Source of the DNA: Escherichia coli
GTDB taxonomy: Bacteria > Pseudomonadota > Gammaproteobacteria > Enterobacterales > Enterobacteriaceae
Strand: one strand, 5' to 3'
DNA length: 64,000 nt
Assembly: GCF_003018235.1 (NCBI RefSeq)
Contig: NZ_CP027437.1
Made by a program: the position numbers and the translations under genes
Notes under the pieces: model-generated
Told to the model about the DNA's origin: nothing
Databases searched by the model: none
The model's input: only the letters and a program-made list of their open reading frames with translations
In this document: positions 31,789 to 47,982 of the stretch, in pieces
How positions within the stretch are numbered: position 1 is the stretch's first letter
Layout: every line of letters starts with the position of its first letter

Positions 31789-31827
31789 CAGTATTCAGGT
31801 AGCTGTTGAGCCTGGGGCGGTAGCGTG
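31789..31827 (+). promoter_or_regulatory. JUMPStart sequence with ops element (GGCGGTAGCGTG at 31816-31827) in waaQ operon leader; RfaH antitermination site
   Basis: Exact match to the ops consensus GGCGGTAGnnTG, about 50 nt upstream of waaQ. Confidence 0.7.
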
Positions 31828-34888: not shown

Positions 34889-35896
34889 ATGTCTCAACTC
34901 AATGATAGTGACATCATCCTTTTTGAGTATAACTTTCATTATCAAAATATAAGATCTAAAAATACTCTTGATATCGCATTTGGTATTGACAGAAATTTTC
35001 TTTTTGGATGTGGTGTAGCCATCGCATCTATTCTATTAAACAATAGCGAAATCTCTTGTGAATTTCATGTTTTCACAGATTATATCAGTGATAAAGACAA
35101 GTTATATTTTTCCGATTTAGCAAAACAATATAATTCAAGAATTAATATTTATGTAATCAATTGTGATAAACTGAAGTCATTACCAAGCACGAAAAACTGG
35201 ACTTACGCAACATATTTTCGATTTATAATTGCAGATTATTTCTATCATAAACATGAAAAAATACTATATCTTGATGCAGATATTGCTTGCAAGGGTAGTA
35301 TTAAAGAACTCTTAGATTATCAATTTTCTCCTAATGAAATTGCCGCAGTTGTAGCTGAAAGAGATGTTGAATGGTGGCAAAATCGAGCCTCGGTATTAAC
35401 TACACCACAGTTAGCTTCTGGATATTTCAATGCTGGTTTTTTACTGATAAATATTGATGAGTGGAATCTAAATAACATTTCGTCAAAAGCTATTGAAATG
35501 TTGCGTGATCCAGATTGGGTAAGTAAAATTACCCACCTTGATCAAGATGTACTGAATGTATTATTGAATGGTAAAGTGAAGTTTATTTCGGGGAAATATA
35601 ATACCCGATATAGTATTAACTACGAATTAAAAGACAAAGTTGATAATCCAGTCAATGATGACACCGTGTTTATACACTATGTGGGACCTACAAAACCCTG
35701 GCATGAGTGGGCTGATTATCCGGTGTCACGTAGTTTTTTGATCGCCAAGGCAGCTTCTCCGTGGAGTAAAGAAGATTTACTTAAACCTGTAAATAGCAAT
35801 CAGTATCGGTATTGTGCAAAACATAAATTTAAACAAAAGCATTATATGGCAGGCATTTTTAATTATTTAAAGTATTATAAAGAAAAATGTTTCTAA
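34889..35896 (+). CDS. waaI: LPS outer-core alpha-1,3-hexosyltransferase (GT8)
   Basis: 335 aa; GT8 motifs (YLDADI, HY.G..KPW); low GC; symbol assumes R3-type order. Confidence 0.65.
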   Translation: MSQLNDSDIILFEYNFHYQNIRSKNTLDIAFGIDRNFLFGCGVAIASILLNNSEISCEFHVFTDYISDKDKLYFSDLAKQYNSRINIYVINCDKLKSLPSTKNWTYATYFRFIIADYFYHKHEKILYLDADIACKGSIKELLDYQFSPNEIAAVVAERDVEWWQNRASVLTTPQLASGYFNAGFLLINIDEWNLNNISSKAIEMLRDPDWVSKITHLDQDVLNVLLNGKVKFISGKYNTRYSINYELKDKVDNPVNDDTVFIHYVGPTKPWHEWADYPVSRSFLIAKAASPWSKEDLLKPVNSNQYRYCAKHKFKQKHYMAGIFNYLKYYKEKCF

Positions 35897-35921
35897 AGAT
35901 TTAAGGTTAAAATAATTCATT

Positions 35922-36629
35922 ATGATATATAATAAAACGATAAACGGATTGAAAGTTTTCATAAAAGATAATGATCCCTTTTATGAGCAAGTTCTGAATG
36001 ACTTTTTAACTTGCAGGGTTAAAACATTAAAAGTTTTTCGTTCTATTGATGATACTAAAGTCATTCTTATTGACACTGCTCGTGGACCTCTTGTACTTAA
36101 AGTTTATGCGCCAAAGCATAAAATGATCGAACGTTTCTTAAAATCTTGCATAAAAAAAGATTATTATGAAAATTTAATTTATCAAACCGATCGGGTACGT
36201 GGTGAAGGCGTTCAATCAATTAATGACTATTTTTTGCTTGCTGAACGTAAAACATTAAATTTCGCGCATTATTATATTATGCTCATTGAGTATATTGAAG
36301 GTGTCGGGTTAAATGAGTATTTGGAAATTTCTGAAGATCTGAAGGATCAATTATCAGAATCGATAAAAGAGCTGCATCAGCATGGAATGGTGTCTGGCGA
36401 TCCTCATAAAGGAAATTTTATAGTATCCGAAAAAGGTTTAAGACTAATTGACCTTTCAGGTAAAAAAACAACCGCTGTTTTAAAAGCAAAAGATCGCATT
36501 GATCTTGAACGGCACTATAATATAAAAAATGAATTGAAAGACTTTGGCTATACATATCTTATATTCAAAAAGAAAATTAAAAAAGTAATCAGGGATGTAA
36601 AAGTCAAACTAGGATTGAAGAGCAAATAA
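35922..36629 (+). CDS. waaY: LPS core heptose(II) kinase
   Basis: 235 aa WaaY/Kdo-kinase-like protein between two GT8 genes. Confidence 0.75.
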   Translation: MIYNKTINGLKVFIKDNDPFYEQVLNDFLTCRVKTLKVFRSIDDTKVILIDTARGPLVLKVYAPKHKMIERFLKSCIKKDYYENLIYQTDRVRGEGVQSINDYFLLAERKTLNFAHYYIMLIEYIEGVGLNEYLEISEDLKDQLSESIKELHQHGMVSGDPHKGNFIVSEKGLRLIDLSGKKTTAVLKAKDRIDLERHYNIKNELKDFGYTYLIFKKKIKKVIRDVKVKLGLKSK

Positions 36630-36653
36630 TGATTATGATGAAGGGTAATTAAA

Positions 36654-37667
36654 TTGGATTTTAAACATCTTACTCAATTTAAAGATATAATTGAACTGGA
36701 CAAGCGCCCTGTTAAACTTGATGAACGGGAAACGTTTAATGTCTCATGGGGTATTGATGAGAACTACCAGGTAGGGGCTGCGATTTCAATTGCTTCAATT
36801 CTTGAAAATAATAAACAAAACAAATTTACCTTTCACATAATCGCTGATTACTTAGACAAAGAGTATATTGAATTATTATCACAATTAGCAACGAAGTATC
36901 AAACAGTAATTAAATTATATCATATTGATTCTGAGCCATTGAAGGCGCTACCTCAATCAAATATCTGGCCAGTATCTATTTATTATCGTTTGCTTTCATT
37001 TGATTATTTTTCTGCGCGATTGGATTCATTATTATATCTTGATGCTGATATCGTCTGTAAGGGTTCATTGAACGAGTTAATAGCATTAGAGTTTAAAGAT
37101 GAATATGGGGCTGTGGTAATTGATGTAGATGCTATGCAAAGTAAAAGCGCTGAGCGTTTATGTAATGAGGATTTTAACGGTAGCTATTTTAACTCTGGTG
37201 TAATGTATATTAATTTACGGGAATGGTTACAACAAAGACTAACGGAGAAATTCTTTGATCTATTATCAGATGAGTCAATTATCAAAAAATTAAAGTATCC
37301 GGATCAAGATATTTTAAACTTAATGTTTTTACATCATGCTAAAATATTACCGAGAAAATATAATTGTATTTATACTATAAAGTCAGAATTTGAAGAAAAA
37401 AATAGTGAATATTACACCCAGTTTATTAATGATGAAACTGTCTTCATACATTATACTGGTGTAACTAAGCCATGGCATGATTGGGCGGACTACGCATCTG
37501 CAGATTATTTCCGTAATATTTATAATATATCTCCATGGAGAAATATACCTTATAAAAAAGCTGTTAAAAAACATGAGTACAAAGAAAAATATAAACACTT
37601 GCTTTACCAGAAAAAATTTCTCGATGGTGTTTTTACAGCAATTAAATATAATGTTATGAAAGGTTAA
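36654..37667 (+). CDS. waaJ: LPS outer-core alpha-1,2-glycosyltransferase (GT8)
   Basis: 337 aa; GT8 motifs; paralog of preceding GT8. Confidence 0.65.
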   Translation: MDFKHLTQFKDIIELDKRPVKLDERETFNVSWGIDENYQVGAAISIASILENNKQNKFTFHIIADYLDKEYIELLSQLATKYQTVIKLYHIDSEPLKALPQSNIWPVSIYYRLLSFDYFSARLDSLLYLDADIVCKGSLNELIALEFKDEYGAVVIDVDAMQSKSAERLCNEDFNGSYFNSGVMYINLREWLQQRLTEKFFDLLSDESIIKKLKYPDQDILNLMFLHHAKILPRKYNCIYTIKSEFEEKNSEYYTQFINDETVFIHYTGVTKPWHDWADYASADYFRNIYNISPWRNIPYKKAVKKHEYKEKYKHLLYQKKFLDGVFTAIKYNVMKG

Positions 37668-37675
37668 TACTCGAG

Positions 37676-38818
37676 ATGGTTGATAAAATAATATTTACAG
37701 TCACTCCTATTTTTTCAATTCCTCCTCGCGGAGCGGCCGCTGTTGAAACGTGGATGTATCAGGTTGCTCAGCGTACCAATTTCCCAAATCGTATTGTTTG
37801 TATCAAGAATCCAGGATACTCAAATTACACCTTTGTTAATGATAATTGTAGTATTCATAGGGTTGGATTCAGTCGCATATATAAGCGGTTATTTCAAAAA
37901 TGGACAAGACTTGATCCTCTTCCATATTCACAGAGAATATTGAATATTGCCCATGATTTTCCTATAACGAAAGAAAGTGTTATTGTAGTTCATAATAGCA
38001 TGAAACTATACACTCAAATTCGTAAGCGAGCTCCTCAGGCAAGAGTGGTTATTCATATGCATAATGCATTTGAACCAAAATTGCTTGAGCAAAATGTTAA
38101 AATGATAGTGCCTAGTTTATACTTGAAAAAGTATTACCAATCTTATTTAGCAAATGCAGATATTGAGATTGTACCAAATGGAATTGATTTAGAAACCTAT
38201 CAATCTACTTTTCAGCCGATCACTAGAAGCGAACTTAATATCTCCCCTGAAGAGAAAATTATTTTTTATGCTGGGCGTATCGTCCCTGATAAAGGCATAT
38301 TACTGTTGATGCAATCATTCGAAAAATTGGCCGCTGCTCACAAAAATTTAAAATTAGTTGTGATTGGTGATTATACAGAAATGAGTAAAAGTGACAAAGG
38401 TGCATATCAACGCAATGTCAGGGAAATTGCAAAACGTTTGAAGGATCGTTGCATTATGTTAGGAAGCATACCGCCTGAAAATATGCATTGTTATTACCCA
38501 CTGGCGGATTTAGTCGTCATTCCTTCCCAGTTCCAGGAACCATTTTGCATGGTGGCAATTGAAGCTATGGGGGCTGGTAAGCCTGTTTTAGTGAGTACGC
38601 GTGGGGGGATGACGGAATTTGTCAAAGAAAATACTACGGGATTCCATTTAAAAGAACCTATGACTGCAGACTCCATAAGCAGCGATATTTTAAAAACGTT
38701 AGCGAATCCTGAATTAACAGCAGTTGCAAAGCAAGGTCAGGATTTTGTGTTTGATCACTACAGTTGGGATGGCGTAACTCAAAGATTTGAAGAGGTTATT
38801 CATAATTGGTTTGAATAA
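37676..38818 (+). CDS. waaD: LPS outer-core glycosyltransferase (GT4; WaaD/WaaK-like)
   Basis: 380 aa; GT4 C-terminal EX7E-type region; last gene before waaL; symbol tentative. Confidence 0.55.
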   Translation: MVDKIIFTVTPIFSIPPRGAAAVETWMYQVAQRTNFPNRIVCIKNPGYSNYTFVNDNCSIHRVGFSRIYKRLFQKWTRLDPLPYSQRILNIAHDFPITKESVIVVHNSMKLYTQIRKRAPQARVVIHMHNAFEPKLLEQNVKMIVPSLYLKKYYQSYLANADIEIVPNGIDLETYQSTFQPITRSELNISPEEKIIFYAGRIVPDKGILLLMQSFEKLAAAHKNLKLVVIGDYTEMSKSDKGAYQRNVREIAKRLKDRCIMLGSIPPENMHCYYPLADLVVIPSQFQEPFCMVAIEAMGAGKPVLVSTRGGMTEFVKENTTGFHLKEPMTADSISSDILKTLANPELTAVAKQGQDFVFDHYSWDGVTQRFEEVIHNWFE

Positions 38819-38825
38819 ATAAAAA

Positions 38826-38848
38826 GGCCGCATTATGCAGCCTTTTTA
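38826..38848. terminator. Bidirectional terminator between convergent waaD-like gene and waaL
   Basis: A5-GGCCGCA...TGCAGCC-T5 hairpin (one mismatch) flanked by A and T runs. Confidence 0.45.
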
Positions 38849-38852
38849 TTTT

Positions 38853-40061
38853 TTACTTGTTTTTCATCGCTAATAATAAGCCGGCGTAAACACCTAATAA
38901 ATTTGGTTCAATTTGTTCTACGTTTCCACGGATAACAAAATAACCTATAAAAGATAGTAAGATTATATAATATGCATTATATGGTGAGCGGTATTTATTC
39001 TGGACGCCATTTTTTATACACTCTTTCAATATTGCACAGTATAGCATCATAAGACTTACCAGCCCTAATAAACCAGTGCCAAACCAGATGAATAGCGCAA
39101 AATTATGTGGCCCTATTGATTGTCTAAAGGTCCATTCTGGATAATCAACGACACGTTTATTATAGACATCTTTATATGCAACGTTACCGTAACCATAACC
39201 AATAACAGGATTCTCTAATATTAGATCGAGTGCGCTGCCTTGAGTACCATTTGCATAGCGATAAGAACTATTAGTTTGTTGAAGTTTATACGTTAGCTTT
39301 GCGGTCATCTCCTTATGTGTGAAAATAACCGACAATGCAATGATGGAAACCATTACTCCTACTAATAGTAACTTCCATTGTTTAAACATCAGAATCCATA
39401 TTAATCCAATGACTAACACGGAAAGCCAGGCCCCTCTGGATAAAGTTCCTAATATCAGAAAAATAAAAATAAAGCTTAGAACCACAAAAGAAATGCGGTA
39501 TTTTGCTGATTTGATAAGCCAGAGATTTAACAATGCAGGGAATAAAAAGACCATCGAGTCAGAAATGCTACGGTGTCTATAATCTGCGAATGGCATTATC
39601 CCTTGTTGATAGTCCTTATAATAGGCAATCAATTCAGAAAAACAGCGTAAGCCCAACGCACTAATAAATGAGAAGAAAACGATTTTTTCGACATCTTCTC
39701 TTTTCTCGTCTCTCAATATGACTGGTATTGCTATTGTGCATAGTAAAGTATTCTCAATAATAGCTTTGAAAATTTCCTTCATGCTAGCCCCTGCATCAGG
39801 GGATTGAAGAAGTGACAGCAATGCAGCAATAGTTAATATGGCAACACTACCAAAAAGAAATGTTTTAAATAGTGAGAGATAATGTTTTGGCCGTTTGCAG
39901 AGATAGACGATTGTCGTTATTGTCATAAGAATAACGATAAGATGTTTATACCTTGTAATCCCACCCAAAAAATAGGTGGTAATGAATAAGAATACGAGAG
40001 CTCTGTTCCAGTACGCTATCCAGTTTTTTTTCTCGAGAGAGAAAAATAATGTTGAGGTCAT
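38853..40061 (-). CDS. waaL: O-antigen ligase
   Basis: 402 aa polytopic membrane protein in the conserved waaL position; start overlaps waaC stop (ATGA). Confidence 0.8.
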   Translation of the reverse strand: MTSTLFFSLEKKNWIAYWNRALVFLFITTYFLGGITRYKHLIVILMTITTIVYLCKRPKHYLSLFKTFLFGSVAILTIAALLSLLQSPDAGASMKEIFKAIIENTLLCTIAIPVILRDEKREDVEKIVFFSFISALGLRCFSELIAYYKDYQQGIMPFADYRHRSISDSMVFLFPALLNLWLIKSAKYRISFVVLSFIFIFLILGTLSRGAWLSVLVIGLIWILMFKQWKLLLVGVMVSIIALSVIFTHKEMTAKLTYKLQQTNSSYRYANGTQGSALDLILENPVIGYGYGNVAYKDVYNKRVVDYPEWTFRQSIGPHNFALFIWFGTGLLGLVSLMMLYCAILKECIKNGVQNKYRSPYNAYYIILLSFIGYFVIRGNVEQIEPNLLGVYAGLLLAMKNK

Positions 40062-41050
40062 CTTATCTCCGATGTCAACTTATTGGTTATTATTTCAAGA
40101 TTTAAATTTTGAAAAACGGTTTGAGCTGGCAAATCTGCAAGAGACATACTTGTAGAACGACACTCTACTTGATTCTTCCCATACCCACCAATTAATCCAG
40201 GATCGGTTGGTCCATAAACCGTGATATTGGGTCTATCCAGTGCCGCCGTTAAATGGCTTAACCCCGTATCCACCGACACTACAAATTTAGCCCCGGCCAG
40301 CACGCGGGCAACGCCTTCCAGACTCATCTTCGGCAATACTTCAACATAAGCAAATCCTTCCGCCAGTCGTTTCGCCCGTTCTTCCTCATGCGGCGCGCCC
40401 CACGGAAGTTTAATCCGTATTCCTGAATCAGCCAGTAAACCAATCAATTCTCGCCAGTGTTCTTCCGGCCAGTGTTTATCATCTCGGGTTGTTGCATGAA
40501 GAAATACGGCATATTCGCCAGCATCTGTAGGCAGGTTCGTCAGGAAATGCTGTGCGATAGCATAATCGCCCTGGGTTTGTGGTTTGCTATAGCCCAGACT
40601 TTTGGCAAACAGTTCGCGGGTGCGTTCTACGGCGTGCTGCTGTTTTGCAATATGATGCTTACGATTGTAAAACAGGCTGGCTAAAGGTTCGCGAGCGGTT
40701 TGCCAGTCCATTCCATGCTTTACGCCATGCGCCAGACGCGTCACCAGCGCCGCGCTTTTTACCAGCCCCTGAGCGTCGATAACTGCGTCATAGTTCTCTG
40801 CTTGTAGCGCTTCACGAAACGCTTTCCGTTCAGCTTTTATGGGGGCCGAGAACCAGGCTTTACGCCAGCGACGTATTGCCACAGGAATAACTCGCTCAAC
40901 AGCGGCGTGCCAGGAAGGAATTTGTGCGAACCCTTCTTCCACCACCCAGTCAAACTTAATCCCCGGGATTGCCTGCTGGGCATCAGTGAGTGCGGGCAAC
41001 GTATGGAGAACATCGCCCATCGACGATGTTTTAACGATCAAAACCCGCAT
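40058..41050 (-). CDS. waaC: LPS heptosyltransferase I
   Basis: 330 aa MRVLIVKTSSMGDVLHTLPALTDA; C-terminal ~30 aa appear to differ from the K-12 protein as remembered. Confidence 0.9.
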   Translation of the reverse strand: MRVLIVKTSSMGDVLHTLPALTDAQQAIPGIKFDWVVEEGFAQIPSWHAAVERVIPVAIRRWRKAWFSAPIKAERKAFREALQAENYDAVIDAQGLVKSAALVTRLAHGVKHGMDWQTAREPLASLFYNRKHHIAKQQHAVERTRELFAKSLGYSKPQTQGDYAIAQHFLTNLPTDAGEYAVFLHATTRDDKHWPEEHWRELIGLLADSGIRIKLPWGAPHEEERAKRLAEGFAYVEVLPKMSLEGVARVLAGAKFVVSVDTGLSHLTAALDRPNITVYGPTDPGLIGGYGKNQVECRSTSMSLADLPAQTVFQNLNLEIITNKLTSEIR

Positions 41051-42109: not shown

Positions 42110-43042
42110 TTATGCGTCGCGATTCAGCCAGGCCATGTATTCCGTTACACCTTCAGCAACGGTTTTGAACGGTTTATCGTAACCCGCCGCGCGCAGATTC
42201 GTCAGATCTGCCTGAGTGAACGCCTGGTAGCGGCCTTTCAGTTTATCCGGGAACGGAATGTATTCGATCTGGCCTTTCTTGTGATAAGCCAGCGTAGCAT
42301 CGGCTACCGCCTGGAAGGATTCCGCACGACCGGTGCCGAGGTTGAAGATGCCGGAAACGCCATTTTCCAGGAACCACAGGTTTACATCTGCCACGTCGCC
42401 TACGTAAACGAAGTCGCGTTTGAAGTTCTCGCTACCTTCAAACAGCTTCGGCGATTCACCGTTGTTAAGCTGAGTGTTGAGATGGAAAGCGACGCTCGCC
42501 ATGCTGCCTTTATGGCCTTCACGCGGTCCATAAACGTTGAAATAGCGGAAGCCAACAATCTGCGAGTTCGCTTCTGGCAGGATTTGACGAACATATTCAT
42601 CAAACAGGAATTTTGAGTAACCGTAGACGTTCAACGGTTTTTCGTACTCGCGGGATTCAATAAAGTCGGAGGTGCGACCGCCGTAAGTGGCCGCGGAAGA
42701 GGCATACAGGAACGGGATTTCGCGTTCCAGACAGTAGTGCAGCAGCTCTTTGGAGTATTGATAGTTGTTATCCATCATATACTTGCCATCCCACTCGGTG
42801 GTGGAAGAGCATGCGCCTTCGTGGAAAATCGCTTCGACATCACCGAACTCTTCGCCAGCCATAATCTGGATCAGGAAGTCTTCCTTATCCATATAGTCCG
42901 CGATATCCAGATCCACCAGGTTCACAAACTTGGTGCCGTCTTTCAGGTTGTCCACCACCAGAATATCGGTGATGCCTTTATCATTCAGGGCCTTAACGAT
43001 GTTGCTGCCGATAAAGCCCGCGCCGCCGGTAACGATGATCAT
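42110..43042 (-). CDS. hldD: ADP-L-glycero-D-manno-heptose 6-epimerase
   Basis: 310 aa [23 protein letters not shown] (Rossmann). Confidence 0.95.
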
Positions 43043-43345
43043 AACTGTAACCTTCGAATTATGGAGTCAGAGACAATCTCAGACACGAATGTCTGTAATC
43101 ATACCATCACATCCGAATCCCTTCAGCCCTTTACATAGAGGTGCAAGGATGCTAATTGCAACAAACTAGTTTGGGTTTTAGCTAGTCCTTCATGGCGGAT
43201 GTTGGTTTTGTATGTGAATAGTGCTTTAGTATCAATATTCCGATGTATGATAAATAACGGAAGCATTTGAATGGATAATATACAGTATACATTCTGTTAA
43301 TATTTATGATATAATTCTTTTTTTATATTAATGGTCTTATTAGTA

Positions 43346-44203
43346 ATGAAATCATCCACCACAATTATCACTGCATATTTTGACATTGGTAGAGGGGATT
43401 GGACTGCTAATAAAGGGTTCCGTGAAAAACTAGCTCGTTCAGTTGATGTTTATTTTAGTTACTTTGAGCGTCTGGCCGCACTTGAAAATGAGATGATTAT
43501 TTTCACTTCTCCCGATTTGAAACCAAGGGTTGAAGCGATTCGCAACGGAAAACCAACAACGGTTATCGTTATCGATATAAAAAAGAAATTTAGATATATC
43601 AGAAGTCGTATCGAAAAAATTCAAAAAGATGAGTCGTTTACAAATAGACTTGAGCCTCGACAATTAAAAAACCCAGAGTACTGGTCACCAGAGTATGTTT
43701 TGGTATGTAACCTTAAGGCCTATTTTGTAAATAAAGCTATCAACATGGGCTTAGTGAAAACTCCTCTTGTTGCGTGGATAGATTTTGGCTATTGCCGTAA
43801 GCCAAATGTAACTCGAGGATTGAAAATTTGGGATTTCCCATTTGATGAAAATAAGATGCATCTTTTCACTATAAAAAAAGGGCTTACTGTCACATCTCAA
43901 CAACAGGCTTTTGATTTCATGATTGGCAATCATGTATATATTATTGGTGGCGCAATTGTTGGTTCACAGCATAAATGGAAAGAATTCTATAAATTAGTTC
44001 TGGAAAGTCAAAAAATAACCCTAAACAATAACATTGTGGACGATGACCAGGGCATCTTTGTCATGTGCTATTACAAACGTTCCGATCTCTTCAACCTAAA
44101 CTATCTGGGGAGAGGAAAATGGTTCGATTTGTTTCGCTGCTTCAGGAGTAACACTTTAGGGGCAAAAATGCAGGCGCTGAGAATTTTCCTTTCAAGAAAA
44201 TAG
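43346..44203 (+). CDS. htrL: HtrL/YibB-family protein
   Basis: 285 aa from MKSSTTIITAYFDIGRGDW; low-GC gene. Confidence 0.8.
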   Translation: MKSSTTIITAYFDIGRGDWTANKGFREKLARSVDVYFSYFERLAALENEMIIFTSPDLKPRVEAIRNGKPTTVIVIDIKKKFRYIRSRIEKIQKDESFTNRLEPRQLKNPEYWSPEYVLVCNLKAYFVNKAINMGLVKTPLVAWIDFGYCRKPNVTRGLKIWDFPFDENKMHLFTIKKGLTVTSQQQAFDFMIGNHVYIIGGAIVGSQHKWKEFYKLVLESQKITLNNNIVDDDQGIFVMCYYKRSDLFNLNYLGRGKWFDLFRCFRSNTLGAKMQALRIFLSRK

Positions 44204-44250
44204 GTTTCCCTCCATTAGTGGGTAGCGTTTTGATACCAAATGAGATTGGA

Positions 44251-44277
44251 AAAATGATGCTCTGGCATCATTTTTTC
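44251..44277 (+). terminator. Rho-independent terminator after htrL
   Basis: AAAATGATGC-TCTG-GCATCATTTT hairpin followed by T-run. Confidence 0.5.
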
Positions 44278-44477
44278 TTTTTATATCAATGCAGTAAAAT
44301 CACTCATCATTATGCCCAGCCAAAACTGTACAGTTTTTCTACTATCTATAGGTGTTGAGAGACATCAAGATTCACGTTATTTATCCTGAATTTTGCAGAA
44401 GTGTTAACGCGTCATCTCGTCGCGACCTATAAGTTTGGGTAATATGTGCTGGAATTTGCCCTGTCTGGAGAATCGCA

Positions 44478-45674
44478 ATGCGTGGAGAATTTTATCAGCA
44501 GTTAACCAACGATCTGGAAACCGCACGGGCGGAAGGGTTGTTTAAAGAAGAGCGCATTATTACGTCTGCGCAGCAAGCAGATATCACTGTGGCTGATGGA
44601 AGCCACGTCATTAACTTTTGTGCCAATAACTATCTCGGACTGGCGAATCATCCGGATCTGATTGCGGCGGCAAAGGCGGGAATGGATTCTCACGGTTTCG
44701 GCATGGCTTCGGTGCGTTTTATTTGCGGCACTCAGGACAGCCATAAAGAGCTTGAACAAAAACTGGCGGCCTTCCTGGGGATGGAAGATGCGATTCTCTA
44801 CTCTTCCTGCTTTGATGCTAACGGTGGCCTGTTCGAAACGCTGTTAGGCGCGGAAGACGCCATTATCTCCGACGCACTGAACCACGCGTCTATTATTGAT
44901 GGTGTGCGTCTGTGCAAAGCTAAACGCTATCGTTATGCCAACAACGATATGCAGGAGCTGGAAGCACGTCTGAAAGAAGCGCGTGAAGCCGGTGCGCGTC
45001 ATGTGCTGATTGCCACCGATGGTGTGTTCTCGATGGACGGCGTGATTGCCAACCTGAAAGGTGTTTGCGATCTCGCAGATAAATATGATGCCCTGGTGAT
45101 GGTAGATGACTCACACGCGGTAGGTTTTGTCGGTGAAAACGGTCGTGGTTCCCATGAATACTGCGATGTGATGGGCCGGGTCGATATTATCACCGGCACG
45201 CTCGGTAAAGCGCTGGGCGGGGCTTCTGGTGGTTATACCGCGGCGCGCAAAGAAGTGGTTGAGTGGCTGCGCCAGCGTTCTCGTCCGTACCTGTTCTCCA
45301 ACTCGCTGGCACCGGCCATTGTTGCCGCTTCCATCAAAGTGCTGGAGATGGTTGAAGCGGGTAGCGAGCTGCGTGACCGTCTGTGGGCGAACGCGCGTCA
45401 GTTCCGTGAGCAAATGTCGGCGGCGGGCTTTACCCTGGCGGGAGCCGATCACGCCATTATTCCGGTCATGCTTGGCGATGCGGTAGTAGCGCAGAAATTT
45501 GCTCGTGAGCTGCAAAAAGAGGGGATTTACGTCACCGGTTTCTTCTATCCGGTCGTTCCGAAAGGTCAGGCGCGTATTCGTACCCAGATGTCTGCGGCGC
45601 ATACCCCTGAGCAAATTACGCGTGCAGTAGAAGCATTCACGCGTATTGGTAAACAACTGGGCGTTATCGCCTGA
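44478..45674 (+). CDS. kbl: 2-amino-3-ketobutyrate CoA ligase (glycine C-acetyltransferase)
   Basis: 398 aa; PLP-dependent enzyme. Confidence 0.95.
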
Positions 45675-45683
45675 GGATGTGAG

Positions 45684-46709
45684 ATGAAAGCGTTATCCAA
45701 ACTGAAAGCGGAAGAGGGCATCTGGATGACCGACGTTCCTGTACCGGAACTCGGGCATAACGATCTGCTGATTAAAATCCGTAAAACAGCCATCTGCGGG
45801 ACTGACGTTCACATCTATAACTGGGATGAGTGGTCGCAAAAAACCATCCCGGTACCGATGGTCGTGGGCCATGAATATGTCGGTGAAGTGGTAGGTATTG
45901 GTCAGGAAGTGAAAGGCTTCAAGATTGGCGATCGCGTTTCTGGCGAAGGCCATATCACCTGCGGTCACTGTCGCAACTGTCGTGGCGGTCGTACCCATCT
46001 GTGCCGCAACACGATCGGCGTCGGCGTTAACCGTCCGGGCTGCTTCGCCGAGTATCTGGTGATTCCGGCGTTCAACGCTTTCAAAATCCCCGACAATATC
46101 TCCGATGATCTGGCTTCCATTTTTGATCCCTTCGGTAACGCCGTGCATACCGCGCTGTCGTTCGATCTGGTGGGTGAAGATGTGCTGGTCTCTGGTGCAG
46201 GCCCGATTGGTATTATGGCGGCGGCGGTGGCGAAACACGTTGGTGCACGTAACGTGGTGATTACTGATGTTAACGAATACCGCCTTGAGTTGGCGCGTAA
46301 AATGGGTATCACCCGTGCGGTTAACGTCGCTAAAGAGAACCTCAATGATGTGATGGCAGAACTGGGCATGACCGAAGGCTTTGATGTCGGTCTGGAAATG
46401 TCCGGTGCGCCACCAGCGTTTCGTACCATGCTCGACACCATGAACCACGGCGGTCGTATTGCGATGCTGGGTATTCCACCGTCTGATATGTCTATCGACT
46501 GGACCAAAGTGATCTTTAAAGGCTTGTTCATTAAAGGTATTTACGGTCGTGAGATGTTTGAAACCTGGTACAAGATGGCGGCGCTGATTCAGTCTGGCCT
46601 CGATCTTTCGCCGATCATTACCCATCGTTTCTCTATCGATGATTTCCAGAAGGGCTTTGACGCCATGCGTTCGGGCCAGTCCGGGAAAGTTATCCTGAGC
46701 TGGGATTAA
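45684..46709 (+). CDS. tdh: L-threonine 3-dehydrogenase
   Basis: 341 aa zinc-ADH family ([18 protein letters not shown]). Confidence 0.95.
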
Positions 46710-46718
46710 CACAAACAA

Positions 46719-46742
46719 GGGCTGGTATTCCAGCCCTTTTTC
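46719..46742 (+). terminator. Rho-independent terminator after tdh
   Basis: GGGCTGG-TATT-CCAGCCC followed by TTTTT. Confidence 0.6.
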
Positions 46743-46947
46743 CTGAGGATAATCTGTTAAATATGTAAAATGCTGTCAGTAAAATAAAGAATGGGTAATT
46801 GCGCTGATCTCTTATATAGCTGTTCTCATTATCTCTCTACCCTGAAGTGACTCTCTCACCTGTAAAAATAATATCTCACAGGCTTAATAGTTTCTTAATA
46901 CAAAGCCTGTAAAACGTCAGGATAACTTCAGAGGTAGTCGGTAATTT

Positions 46948-47982
46948 ATGATGAACAGCACCAATAAACTTAGTGTTATTATTCCGTTATATAATGCGGG
47001 TGATGATTTCCGCACTTGTATGGAATCTTTAATTACGCAAACCTGGACTGCTCTGGAAATCATTATTATTAACGATGGTTCAACGGATAATTCTGTTGAA
47101 ATAGCAAAGCATTACGCAGAAAACTATCCGCACGTTCGTTTGTTGCATCAGGCGAATGCTGGCGCATCGGTAGCGCGTAATCGTGGGATCGAGGTGGCGA
47201 CGGGCAAATATGTCGCTTTTGTCGATGCTGACGATGAGGTCTATCCCACCATGTACGAAACGCTGATGACCATGGCGTTAGAGGACGACCTCGACGTGGC
47301 GCAGTGCAACGCTGACTGGTGTTTTCGTGAAACGGGAGAAACCTGGCAATCCATCCCCAGCGATCGCCTTCGCTCAACCGGCGTATTAACCGGCCCGGAC
47401 TGGCTGCGAATGGGGCTTTCTTCCCGCCGTTGGACTCATGTTGTCTGGATGGGCATTTATCGTCGCGATGTCATTGTTAAAAATAACATTAAATTTATTG
47501 CCGGATTACATCATCAGGATATTGTCTGGACAACAGAATTTATGTTTAACGCGCTACGTGCGCGATATACCGAGCAATCGTTATATAAATATTATCTGCA
47601 TAATACGTCAGTAAGTCGCTTGAATAGACAGGGAAATAAAAACCTTAATTATCAACGCCACTATATTAAGATTACCCGACTGCTAGAGAAATTAAATCGA
47701 AATTATGCCGACAAAATTACGATTTATCCGGAATTTCATCAGCAAATAACTTACGAAGCATTGCGTGTTTGCCATGCGGTGCGCAAAGAGCCGGATATTA
47801 TTACCCGCCAACGGATGATTGCCGAGATATTTACTTCTGGTATGTATAAGCGCCTGATTACCAATGTGCGCAGCGTGAAGGTGGGTTATCAGGCGTTACT
47901 GTGGTCTTTCCGCTTATGGCAATGGCGCGACAAAACGCGGTCGCACCATCGCATTACGCGTAGCGCCTTTAATTTACGCTAG
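46948..47982 (+). CDS. waaH: GT2-family glycosyltransferase WaaH (YibD)
   Basis: 344 aa; [11 protein letters not shown] and VDADDE GT2 motifs. Confidence 0.85.

Follow-up and report, generated by a model that had tools for sequence, protein, structure and literature searches.

The 64,000-nucleotide (nt) stretch of Escherichia coli DNA analysed here (assembly GCF_003018235.1, contig NZ_CP027437.1), referred to below as the window, covers the waa (rfa) region in the orientation opposite to that of strain K-12. Its genes lie in the order waaA, waaQ-G-P-O-Y-J-D, waaL-waaC-waaF-hldD (minus strand) and htrL-kbl-tdh-waaH (plus strand). Our subject is all the DNA between the start codons of hldD and kbl (43043–44477), together with the gene that it holds, htrL or yibB. 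On the left, and outside the cassette described below, stands hldD (also rfaD, gmhD or htrM; 42110–43042, minus strand), which was identified from its open reading frame (ORF) and from the RefSeq annotation of near-identical genomes and encodes ADP-glyceromanno-heptose 6-epimerase; on the right the ORF of kbl occupies 44478–45674 on the plus strand. htrL itself, placed by its ORF and by family profiles, runs from 43346 to 44203 (plus strand) and specifies 285 amino acids from the RefSeq start, the frame being open from an ATG at 43331. It is 98.8% identical in nucleotide sequence to K-12 yibB and shares its gene order and its position between hldD and kbl, which makes the two genes orthologous. 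The product is a full-length member of the HtrL_YibB family: residues 8–273 match positions 1–267 of the 267 in profile PF09612 (E = 7e-127; 423 bits, cut-off 24.1), and the protein also scores well above the cut-offs of NF008462, the equivalog for "protein YibB" (548 bits against 342), and of TIGR02192 (435 bits against 265).

The gene belongs to a discrete cassette that is present in some strains and missing from others. When positions 42900–44600 were compared by megablast with 5426 complete E. coli genomes, 5424 gave a match; 1957 (36%) carry the middle of the query, which corresponds to the cassette, and in the other matched genomes hldD and kbl are 213 base pairs (bp) apart. We call these alleles filled and empty, respectively; the hldD–kbl spacer measures 1.44 kilobases (kb) in the former. 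In a BLAST comparison with a strain lacking the cassette, identity breaks at 43091 and returns at 44374. Multi-genus alignments extend a diverged homology up to CTTCAGCC(A/C)TTTAC at 43134, and the allele-specific DNA therefore comprises 43135–44373 (plus strand), 1239 bp with a guanine-plus-cytosine (GC) content of 35.7%, found in filled alleles only. About 18 poorly conserved bp take its place within the 213-bp spacer of empty alleles. The cassette lies exactly between the hldD and kbl promoters, which are divergent. To its right is the kbl upstream region (44374–44477, plus strand), with a putative -10 element TAATAT at 44440–44445, which is shared by filled and empty alleles in all genera. 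To its left is a 44-bp flank (43091–43134), homologous in filled and empty alleles, which sorts by allele class and not by species. The flank of E. coli filled alleles is 0.61–0.64 identical to that of E. coli empty alleles and 0.84–0.91 identical to that of filled alleles from other genera; the E. coli empty flank, for its part, is 0.82–0.98 identical to those of the empty alleles of E. albertii, Citrobacter MGH106 and Intestinirhabdus. Like a genomic island, then, the cassette shows variable presence (1957/5424 filled) and a defined, 213-bp empty site.

In composition, too, htrL departs from its host as an island would. The GC profile falls at about 43100 and climbs back at about 44450. From left to right, the values are 51.2% for hldD, 34.0% for the hldD–htrL spacer (33.7% if measured to the RefSeq start of htrL), 36.9% for htrL, 38.7% for the htrL–kbl spacer and 54.0% for kbl, with 50.1% for the whole window. 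An earlier note, made from the sequence alone, had remarked on the AT-richness of htrL relative to hldD and kbl, and these figures bear it out. Once gene frames had been placed by BLAST mapping, GC at third codon positions (GC3) was 0.357 in htrL as against a mean of 0.564 (standard deviation, sd, 0.051) in the 23 window genes of core composition (z = -4.07). A chi-square test of synonymous codons against those 23 genes gave p = 4e-35 for htrL and p = 0.02–0.17 for rfaD, kbl, tdh and rfaF. Codon usage was among the checks that the note had proposed for its view of the segment, which a normal GC content and codon usage would have refuted; both deviate clearly. The only genes in the window that are more AT-rich are those of the R3 outer core (GC3 0.25–0.34). 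The note had also described both flanks as strongly AT-rich. This holds for the parts owned by the cassette (29.9% GC on the left, 35.9% on the right) but not for the spacers taken whole, which lie merely 0.7–1.3 sd under the average of the other 11 intergenic regions in the window (44.8%, sd 8.3%). The spacers are AT-rich because of their cassette-owned parts, and in strains without htrL the spacer has an ordinary GC content of 43.7%.

A 22-mer scan of species-representative genomes, a small sample of close relatives, yielded 12 loci, with no Salmonella or Klebsiella among them. Orthologues of htrL with 77–83% amino-acid identity occupy the hldD–kbl slot in Citrobacter amalonaticus, Cedecea davisae, Atlantibacter hermannii and Citrobacter sp. 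R56. Others are found in the same slot in "C. freundii" M-21 (80%) and in two metagenomic genomes (82% and 67%), and a metagenomic contig (L029) that ends before hldD carries an 80%-identical orthologue upstream of kbl. The empty site is conserved as well: E. albertii, two further Citrobacter, Intestinirhabdus alba and Yokenella have it at a length of 213–216 bp and with little change in sequence. Between genera, htrL DNA is 71–80% identical, with a GC content of 37–40%; the corresponding figures for the flanking genes are 75–88% and 50–56%. The proportion of synonymous differences (pS) reaches 0.70–0.82 in htrL, which amounts to saturation, versus 0.49–0.66 in rfaD and kbl, and the ratio of nonsynonymous to synonymous divergence (dN/dS) is 0.046–0.050 between genera and 0.17 between the window and K-12. 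The shared slot, the saturation, the low dN/dS and the constant GC of 37–40% therefore argue for an old, maintained polymorphism, as opposed to a recent island or a decaying gene. Filled and empty are thereby shown to be two ancient alleles of the spacer, present in E. coli and in other genera of the Enterobacteriaceae; the polymorphism may be described either as maintained or as repeatedly exchanged through the conserved flanks. That the segment is accessory, looks foreign in composition and is old supports the reading in the earlier note. The same slot in other genera and the saturated divergence show, however, that E. coli did not acquire it recently.

One could still envision a young islet, delivered by a low-GC donor and not yet ameliorated. 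Low GC, deviant codon usage and patchy presence in E. coli would all fit such an origin, as would the existence of HtrL relatives of about 50% identity in the low-GC Acinetobacter, Providencia and Moellerella. More distant paralogues (52–61% identity) stand solitary at unrelated loci in Salmonella, in C. freundii and in one E. coli (L004, 5001–5975; L006, 5001–5858; L009, 4001–4858; L010, 4001–4855). These copies are located close to icd-rluE-nudJ, dinI or yccA, the one in E. coli next to an IS1 transposase; the scatter of solitary paralogues means that the HtrL family has been mobile on a longer time scale. For the hldD–kbl cassette itself, however, recent arrival seems very improbable. The same slot is filled in at least five other lineages, at 71–80% nucleotide identity and with synonymous sites saturated, and the equally low GC in all genera implies long residence without amelioration. 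Moreover, the mobility signatures of an island are missing: among the window ORFs no integrase, transposase, insertion sequence (IS) or transfer RNA (tRNA) gene flanks the cassette, nor do repeats beyond weak ones at chance level.

The opposite possibility is that htrL is not foreign at all. It would be an ancestral resident of the waa region, and the empty allele would go back to one old deletion and have spread by recombination. The low GC would have been kept by selection, for instance for control by H-NS, for a low level of expression or for an AT-rich choice of codons, as with other LPS (lipopolysaccharide) and O-antigen genes. The occurrence of the filled allele across several genera with deep divergence, the purifying selection and conserved promoter, the lack of GC drift towards the host value, and the one junction common to all empty alleles, such as a single deletion would give, are all in its favour. 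Yet the empty allele is equally widespread, and its central 18 bp or so derive from neither end of the cassette. In Citrobacter R56 the empty-allele sequence CACCGATAAGCCATGTGGAT is intact to the right of the cassette, as though the cassette had entered an undisturbed site, and this favours insertion over deletion. The distances also weigh against simple residence. pS is higher in htrL than in the flanks, and E. coli htrL is slightly closer to that of Cedecea (0.781) than to that of C. amalonaticus (0.758), the order being reversed in the flanking genes (0.75–0.83 and 0.81–0.88, respectively); with synonymous sites saturated, this apparent incongruence was read from pairwise distances. The kbl-proximal sequence of C. 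freundii M-21 likewise matches Atlantibacter. On balance we find an ancestral origin with a single loss unlikely, though it is the most serious of the alternatives to an old accessory cassette.

Some observations on the slot are recorded here in their own right. The htrL–kbl spacer, 274 bp in E. coli, measures 288–414 bp in some Citrobacter and in Cedecea, 667 bp in Atlantibacter (L008, 4859–5525) and about 1.5 kb in C. freundii M-21 (L022) and in the metagenomic contig mentioned above (L029, 1174–2719). The extra DNA of M-21 has 43% GC and no convincing ORF, and only its kbl-proximal 114 bp are common with Atlantibacter. A 19-nt direct repeat (16/19 identical), TTCTTTTTTTATATTAATG at 43315–43333 and TTTTCTTTTTATATCAATG at 44273–44291, surrounds the htrL coding sequence and its terminator, off the junctions; in DNA this AT-rich it has probably arisen by chance. 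Finally, the genome OH_SDB_141, a metagenome-assembled genome (MAG) classed in GTDB as "Bacillota bacterium", includes two contigs (L018 and L019) with E. coli hldD–kbl DNA, one with the empty allele and the other with the htrL cassette (99% amino-acid identity); evidently, DNA from two or more E. coli strains contaminates this bin.

The cassette is a complete transcription unit, with a near-consensus sigma-70 promoter, a gene of 285 codons and an intrinsic terminator. A promoter scan located TATACA-18-TATAAT with a TG-extended -10 at 43286–43315 (plus strand; 10/12 matches), and its parts TGATATAAT and TACA are conserved in four genera; the same promoter was given as the "constitutive" yibB promoter by Shimada in 2014 (PMC3946193). 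The terminator, found by a terminator scan at 44248–44287 (plus strand), has a 13-bp stem and a 4-nt loop (44248–44277) followed by a T-run. In K-12 W3110 the yibB/hldD spacer belongs to type A, in which peaks of RpoD holoenzyme obtained by SELEX (systematic evolution of ligands by exponential enrichment) overlap H-NS SELEX sites, and divergent promoters were predicted there (PMC3946193). The hldD promoter of that study, TTAATA-17-CATAAA, maps in the window to 43303–43331 on the minus strand; as this is inside the cassette, it exists only in filled alleles. The H-NS-silenced reading offered by the note thus has in vitro support, and we infer that H-NS would hold the strong htrL promoter low. 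As for other regulators, yibB has been labelled "RfaH-regulated" (PMC8303582). As a test of that label, our search for ops/JUMPstart sequences found no ops element (GGCGGTAGnnTG) near htrL at up to one mismatch. The sole perfect ops in the window (GGCGGTAGCGTG, 31816–31827) precedes waaQ by 50 bp, in keeping with the dependence of the waaQ operon on RfaH.

Silencing of this kind raises the question of whether htrL might be a functionless relic, quieted by H-NS and on its way to being lost. That 64% of E. coli genomes do without it, with no consequence known, is compatible with that idea, as are the H-NS site upstream (PMC3946193) and a silkworm virulence screen in which an E. coli yibB knockout killed no better than the wild type (PMC9278758). 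These points are outweighed by others, and we consider a dying gene scarcely credible. Between genera dN/dS is about 0.05 (0.17 within E. coli), all lineages examined have kept the 285-codon frame unbroken, promoter and terminator are conserved, none of 1363 genomes of the R3 core type (see below) has lost the gene, and htrL messenger RNA (mRNA) rises 2.9-fold in enterohaemorrhagic E. coli (EHEC) after ciprofloxacin (PMC11125564). Strong purifying selection together with a conserved promoter means that htrL is in use, unlike inert DNA of foreign origin.

On the hldD side of the cassette, the earlier note had reported an inverted repeat, CAGACA-CGAA-TGTCTG, upstream of hldD. All alleles have in common an hldD leader of 49 nt (43043–43091, minus strand), delimited by the multi-genus alignments and by the BLAST break at 43091. 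The leader is nearly invariant in 14 sequences from seven genera, in which synonymous sites of hldD differ at 49–66%, and it contains an invariant 20-mer, AGTCAGAGACAATCTCAGAC, at 43065–43084. As RNA, AGTCAGAGACAATCTCAGAC might pair as an 8-bp hairpin with one mismatch; an Rfam scan of 42800–44700 (E <= 10) returned nothing other than sub-threshold eukaryotic noise of the small nucleolar and long noncoding RNA kind. Conservation also points to a putative hldD promoter at 43098–43126 (minus strand), made up of CTGAAG (43126–43121), a 17-nt spacer and TGnTATGAT, with the -10 at 43103–43098. Its ATCATA and TTCAGCC are invariant in 14/14 sequences, and the -35/-10 pair is present in both filled and empty alleles. 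If this pair is indeed the hldD promoter, transcription would start at about 43091, within the inverted repeat, some 45 bp downstream of the near end of the cassette.

The repeat does exist, at 43080–43095, nine bases to the right of the 43071–43086 quoted in the note. Its right arm consists of allele-specific sequence. Perfect 6-bp stems with loops of 3–8 nt number 154 in the window (2.4 per kb), compared with 108 +/- 10 in block shuffles, and at that frequency one such stem is expected by chance in a 288-bp spacer. Could it nonetheless control hldD, either as the operator of a dimeric regulator or as an mRNA-stabilising 5' hairpin with a UUCG loop? The palindrome is perfect over 6 bp, has a loop of 4 nt and stands 38–53 nt upstream of the hldD ATG, it is kept in E. 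coli filled alleles, C. amalonaticus and Atlantibacter, and the hldD operon is heat-regulated (PMC8745692). Against a controlling role, for which we see very little chance, stands first of all the chance rate of about two per kb. The repeat is moreover broken in 8/14 alleles with no compensatory change, having been lost from Cedecea, Yokenella, Citrobacter MGH106 and NCU1, Intestinirhabdus, E. albertii and every E. coli empty allele (64% of strains). A 101-nt hldD leader is not more stable than shuffled sequences (z = +0.48), its minimum-energy fold skips the stem, and Rfam has no match to it. The inferred transcription start, finally, falls inside the repeat. We therefore treat the repeat, real as it is but at chance level and not conserved, as incidental.

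What the protein might do is suggested by its predicted structure. An AlphaFold model of HtrL, built with 40 homologues, is confident (predicted local distance difference test, pLDDT, 89.5; predicted template-modelling score, pTM, 0.89) and has the Rossmann-like alpha/beta/alpha architecture of the glycosyltransferase A (GT-A) fold. The model chain opens directly with the first beta-strand and hence has no signal peptide or membrane segment, which would fit a cytoplasmic enzyme acting on lipid A-core. Across homologues the only invariant acidic residues are D13, E111, D146 and D232-D233. D146 follows strand 141–145 as D-F-G, not DXD, and D232-D233 (with D234 nearly invariant) are in the motif VDDDQG, ahead of helix 235–244. 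The NCBI name for some family members is "WlaTC/HtrL family glycosyltransferase". On this model HtrL would be a cytoplasmic GT-A-fold glycosyltransferase that decorates the LPS core and is non-essential and strain-specific.

A more specific lead comes from the distribution of htrL among LPS core types. The window contains waaO/Y/J/D and a 402-residue WaaL, a gene set by which we take its core type to be R3. R3 is the core type of O157:H7 and of most EHEC. The published core-typing scheme uses waaJ and waaD as R3 markers. We called core type by waaL and counted matches with contiguous waaL-to-htrL queries and with waaL-only queries. All 1363 R3 genomes have htrL (100%), as do 451 of the 1033 with a K-12-type core (44%), 140 of the 1834 with an R1 core (7.6%) and, by difference, about 3 of the roughly 1194 with the remaining cores (R2, R4 and others). 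Core type does not by itself set the presence of htrL: an R1-type strain with the gene was found, and the K-12-type genomes are split 44/56. Complete R3-type gene sets adjoin htrL in Cedecea davisae, Atlantibacter hermannii and a MAG, and "C. freundii" M-21 has an R3-like WaaL and WaaD alongside it (L026, 2223–6727; L027, 2197–6732; L030, 1468–6705; L022, 1–1663). The WaaO/I, WaaJ, WaaD and WaaL proteins of these taxa are 66–77% identical to those of the window (68–77% in the three with complete sets), and their genes are low in GC too. These sets contradict the statement that variable waa genes have no homologue beyond Escherichia and Shigella (PMC8715443).

In the R3 outer core, a branch of N-acetylglucosamine (GlcNAc) is attached to the first galactose, Gal I (PMC5221442). 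A 2019 preprint citing Kaniuk 2004 has this residue added "by an unknown protein" (bioRxiv 10.1101/536201), and we found nothing either way about the transferase in later literature. Given the perfect association with R3, the Gal I GlcNAc branch is the most specific candidate product of HtrL. It is tempting to speculate that HtrL is the UDP-GlcNAc:(galactosyl)LPS GlcNAc transferase (UDP, uridine diphosphate) responsible for this side branch; model and linkage make the assignment a tentative one, and we give it a low probability. If it holds, the htrL cassette would extend the R3 waa set functionally and would have been inherited together with that set in different genera. In strains with K-12 or some R1 cores, htrL would be quieted by H-NS or would add an overlooked, sub-stoichiometric decoration.

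Taken as a whole, the reading that we consider likely is that of an ancient accessory htrL (yibB) transcription unit at the edge of the waa locus, coding for what would be an LPS-core glycosyltransferase, with the inverted repeat as an incidental feature. A number of points weigh against it. No target duplication or terminal repeats occur at the cassette ends, where we saw just weak AT-rich matches off the junctions; a candidate ATTYAC duplication at the junctions is unconvincing. The empty site is as conserved across genera as the filled one, and so insertion and deletion cannot be polarised. The H-NS evidence consists of in vitro genomic SELEX in K-12, taken from the literature. As regards the protein, Pfam labels the family "unknown function", no canonical DXD can be placed among the invariant acidic residues, and a search of PDB sequences with HtrL gave nothing below E = 0.17. 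An hhalign comparison of the HtrL profile with WaaJ, the GT8 enzyme of the window, revealed no relation (probability 0.6%); without profile similarity to GT8, the glycosyltransferase assignment rests on fold and genomic context. Our literature search found no enzymatic or LPS-structural evidence for HtrL. htrL also accompanies K-12-type, R1-type and other non-R3 cores, where no matching sugar is known, and two of the filled loci of other taxa have non-R3 cores. The link with R3, finally, could be due to physical proximity, the cassette being 3 kb from the R3 outer-core block, and to oversampling of clones such as O157:H7.

The R3-type outer-core block extends from 34889 to 40170, as defined by annotation and by a BLAST limit, and includes waaO/I, waaY, waaJ, waaD, waaL and the final 110 bp or so of waaC. 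Genomes of non-R3 type align to the query only from base 1318, that is, window position 40170. Core-type-specific DNA thus runs past waaL and takes in the final 37 codons or so of waaC (40058–40170), whose product here has 330 residues and whose reading frame overlaps waaL by 4 nt. On the other side, the tdh–waaH spacer and the interior of waaH show more GC dips, to 34–36% (46700–47150 and 47450–47750); waaH is a mosaic in composition, with an overall GC of 45% and a GC3 of 0.48.

Much about htrL was known already: the gene is catalogued in K-12, low GC is usual around waa, and H-NS binding upstream has been published. The linkage between htrL and core type, on the other hand, is unreported, and the two core-typing studies that we checked, PMC8715443 among them, neither use nor mention the gene. 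What the present analysis adds is, first, a filled/empty polymorphism with exact bounds, which predates the genera sharing it, a compact example of LPS-related diversity kept without mobile elements. Second, it adds the existence of R3-type outer-core sets beyond Escherichia and Shigella. Third, it offers a testable lead on the enzyme for the R3 GlcNAc branch, a question open since 2004; this lead to an orphan step raises the interest of the locus modestly and is unproven. The R3 core is a target for phages, antibodies and vaccines in EHEC and Shigella, so that a complete gene-to-structure map would be of practical use.

These properties invite comparison with several known systems. The window gene is the same gene as yibB of E. 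coli K-12 and so the type member of the HtrL/YibB family, from which nothing sets it apart; members elsewhere are also found in loci for LPS or lipooligosaccharide, for example OCL5 of Acinetobacter baumannii (PMC4172580). The named relatives of the predicted fold are the retaining GT-A glycosyltransferases of GT6 (ABO GTA/GTB, BoGT6a) and GT8 (LgtC, WaaO/WaaJ-like enzymes, glycogenin). Xenogeneic silencing by H-NS offers another parallel, in that an AT-rich tract carries a strong "constitutive" promoter overlapping an H-NS SELEX site; htrL differs in not being recently foreign and in being under strong purifying selection. WabB, the GlcNAc transferase that modifies the third heptose (HepIII) of the R3 core, resembles HtrL as an R3 decoration enzyme encoded outside the waaQ operon (10.1101/536201). 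The activity of WabB has been demonstrated, however, and its gene lies elsewhere, on a plasmid or the chromosome, whereas htrL adjoins waa and its activity is predicted only. As a polymorphism the cassette is of one kind with the waa outer-core types themselves, which are likewise AT-rich (GC3 0.25–0.36), form discrete allele classes between conserved flanks without mobility genes, and have related alleles in other genera; their exchange is thought to run via homologous recombination (PMC8715443). In contrast to these gene sets, htrL stands alone, has a promoter and a terminator to itself and belongs to none of the three waa operons, being located beyond hldD-waaFC; it varies by presence or absence and not as one of several alternative sets.

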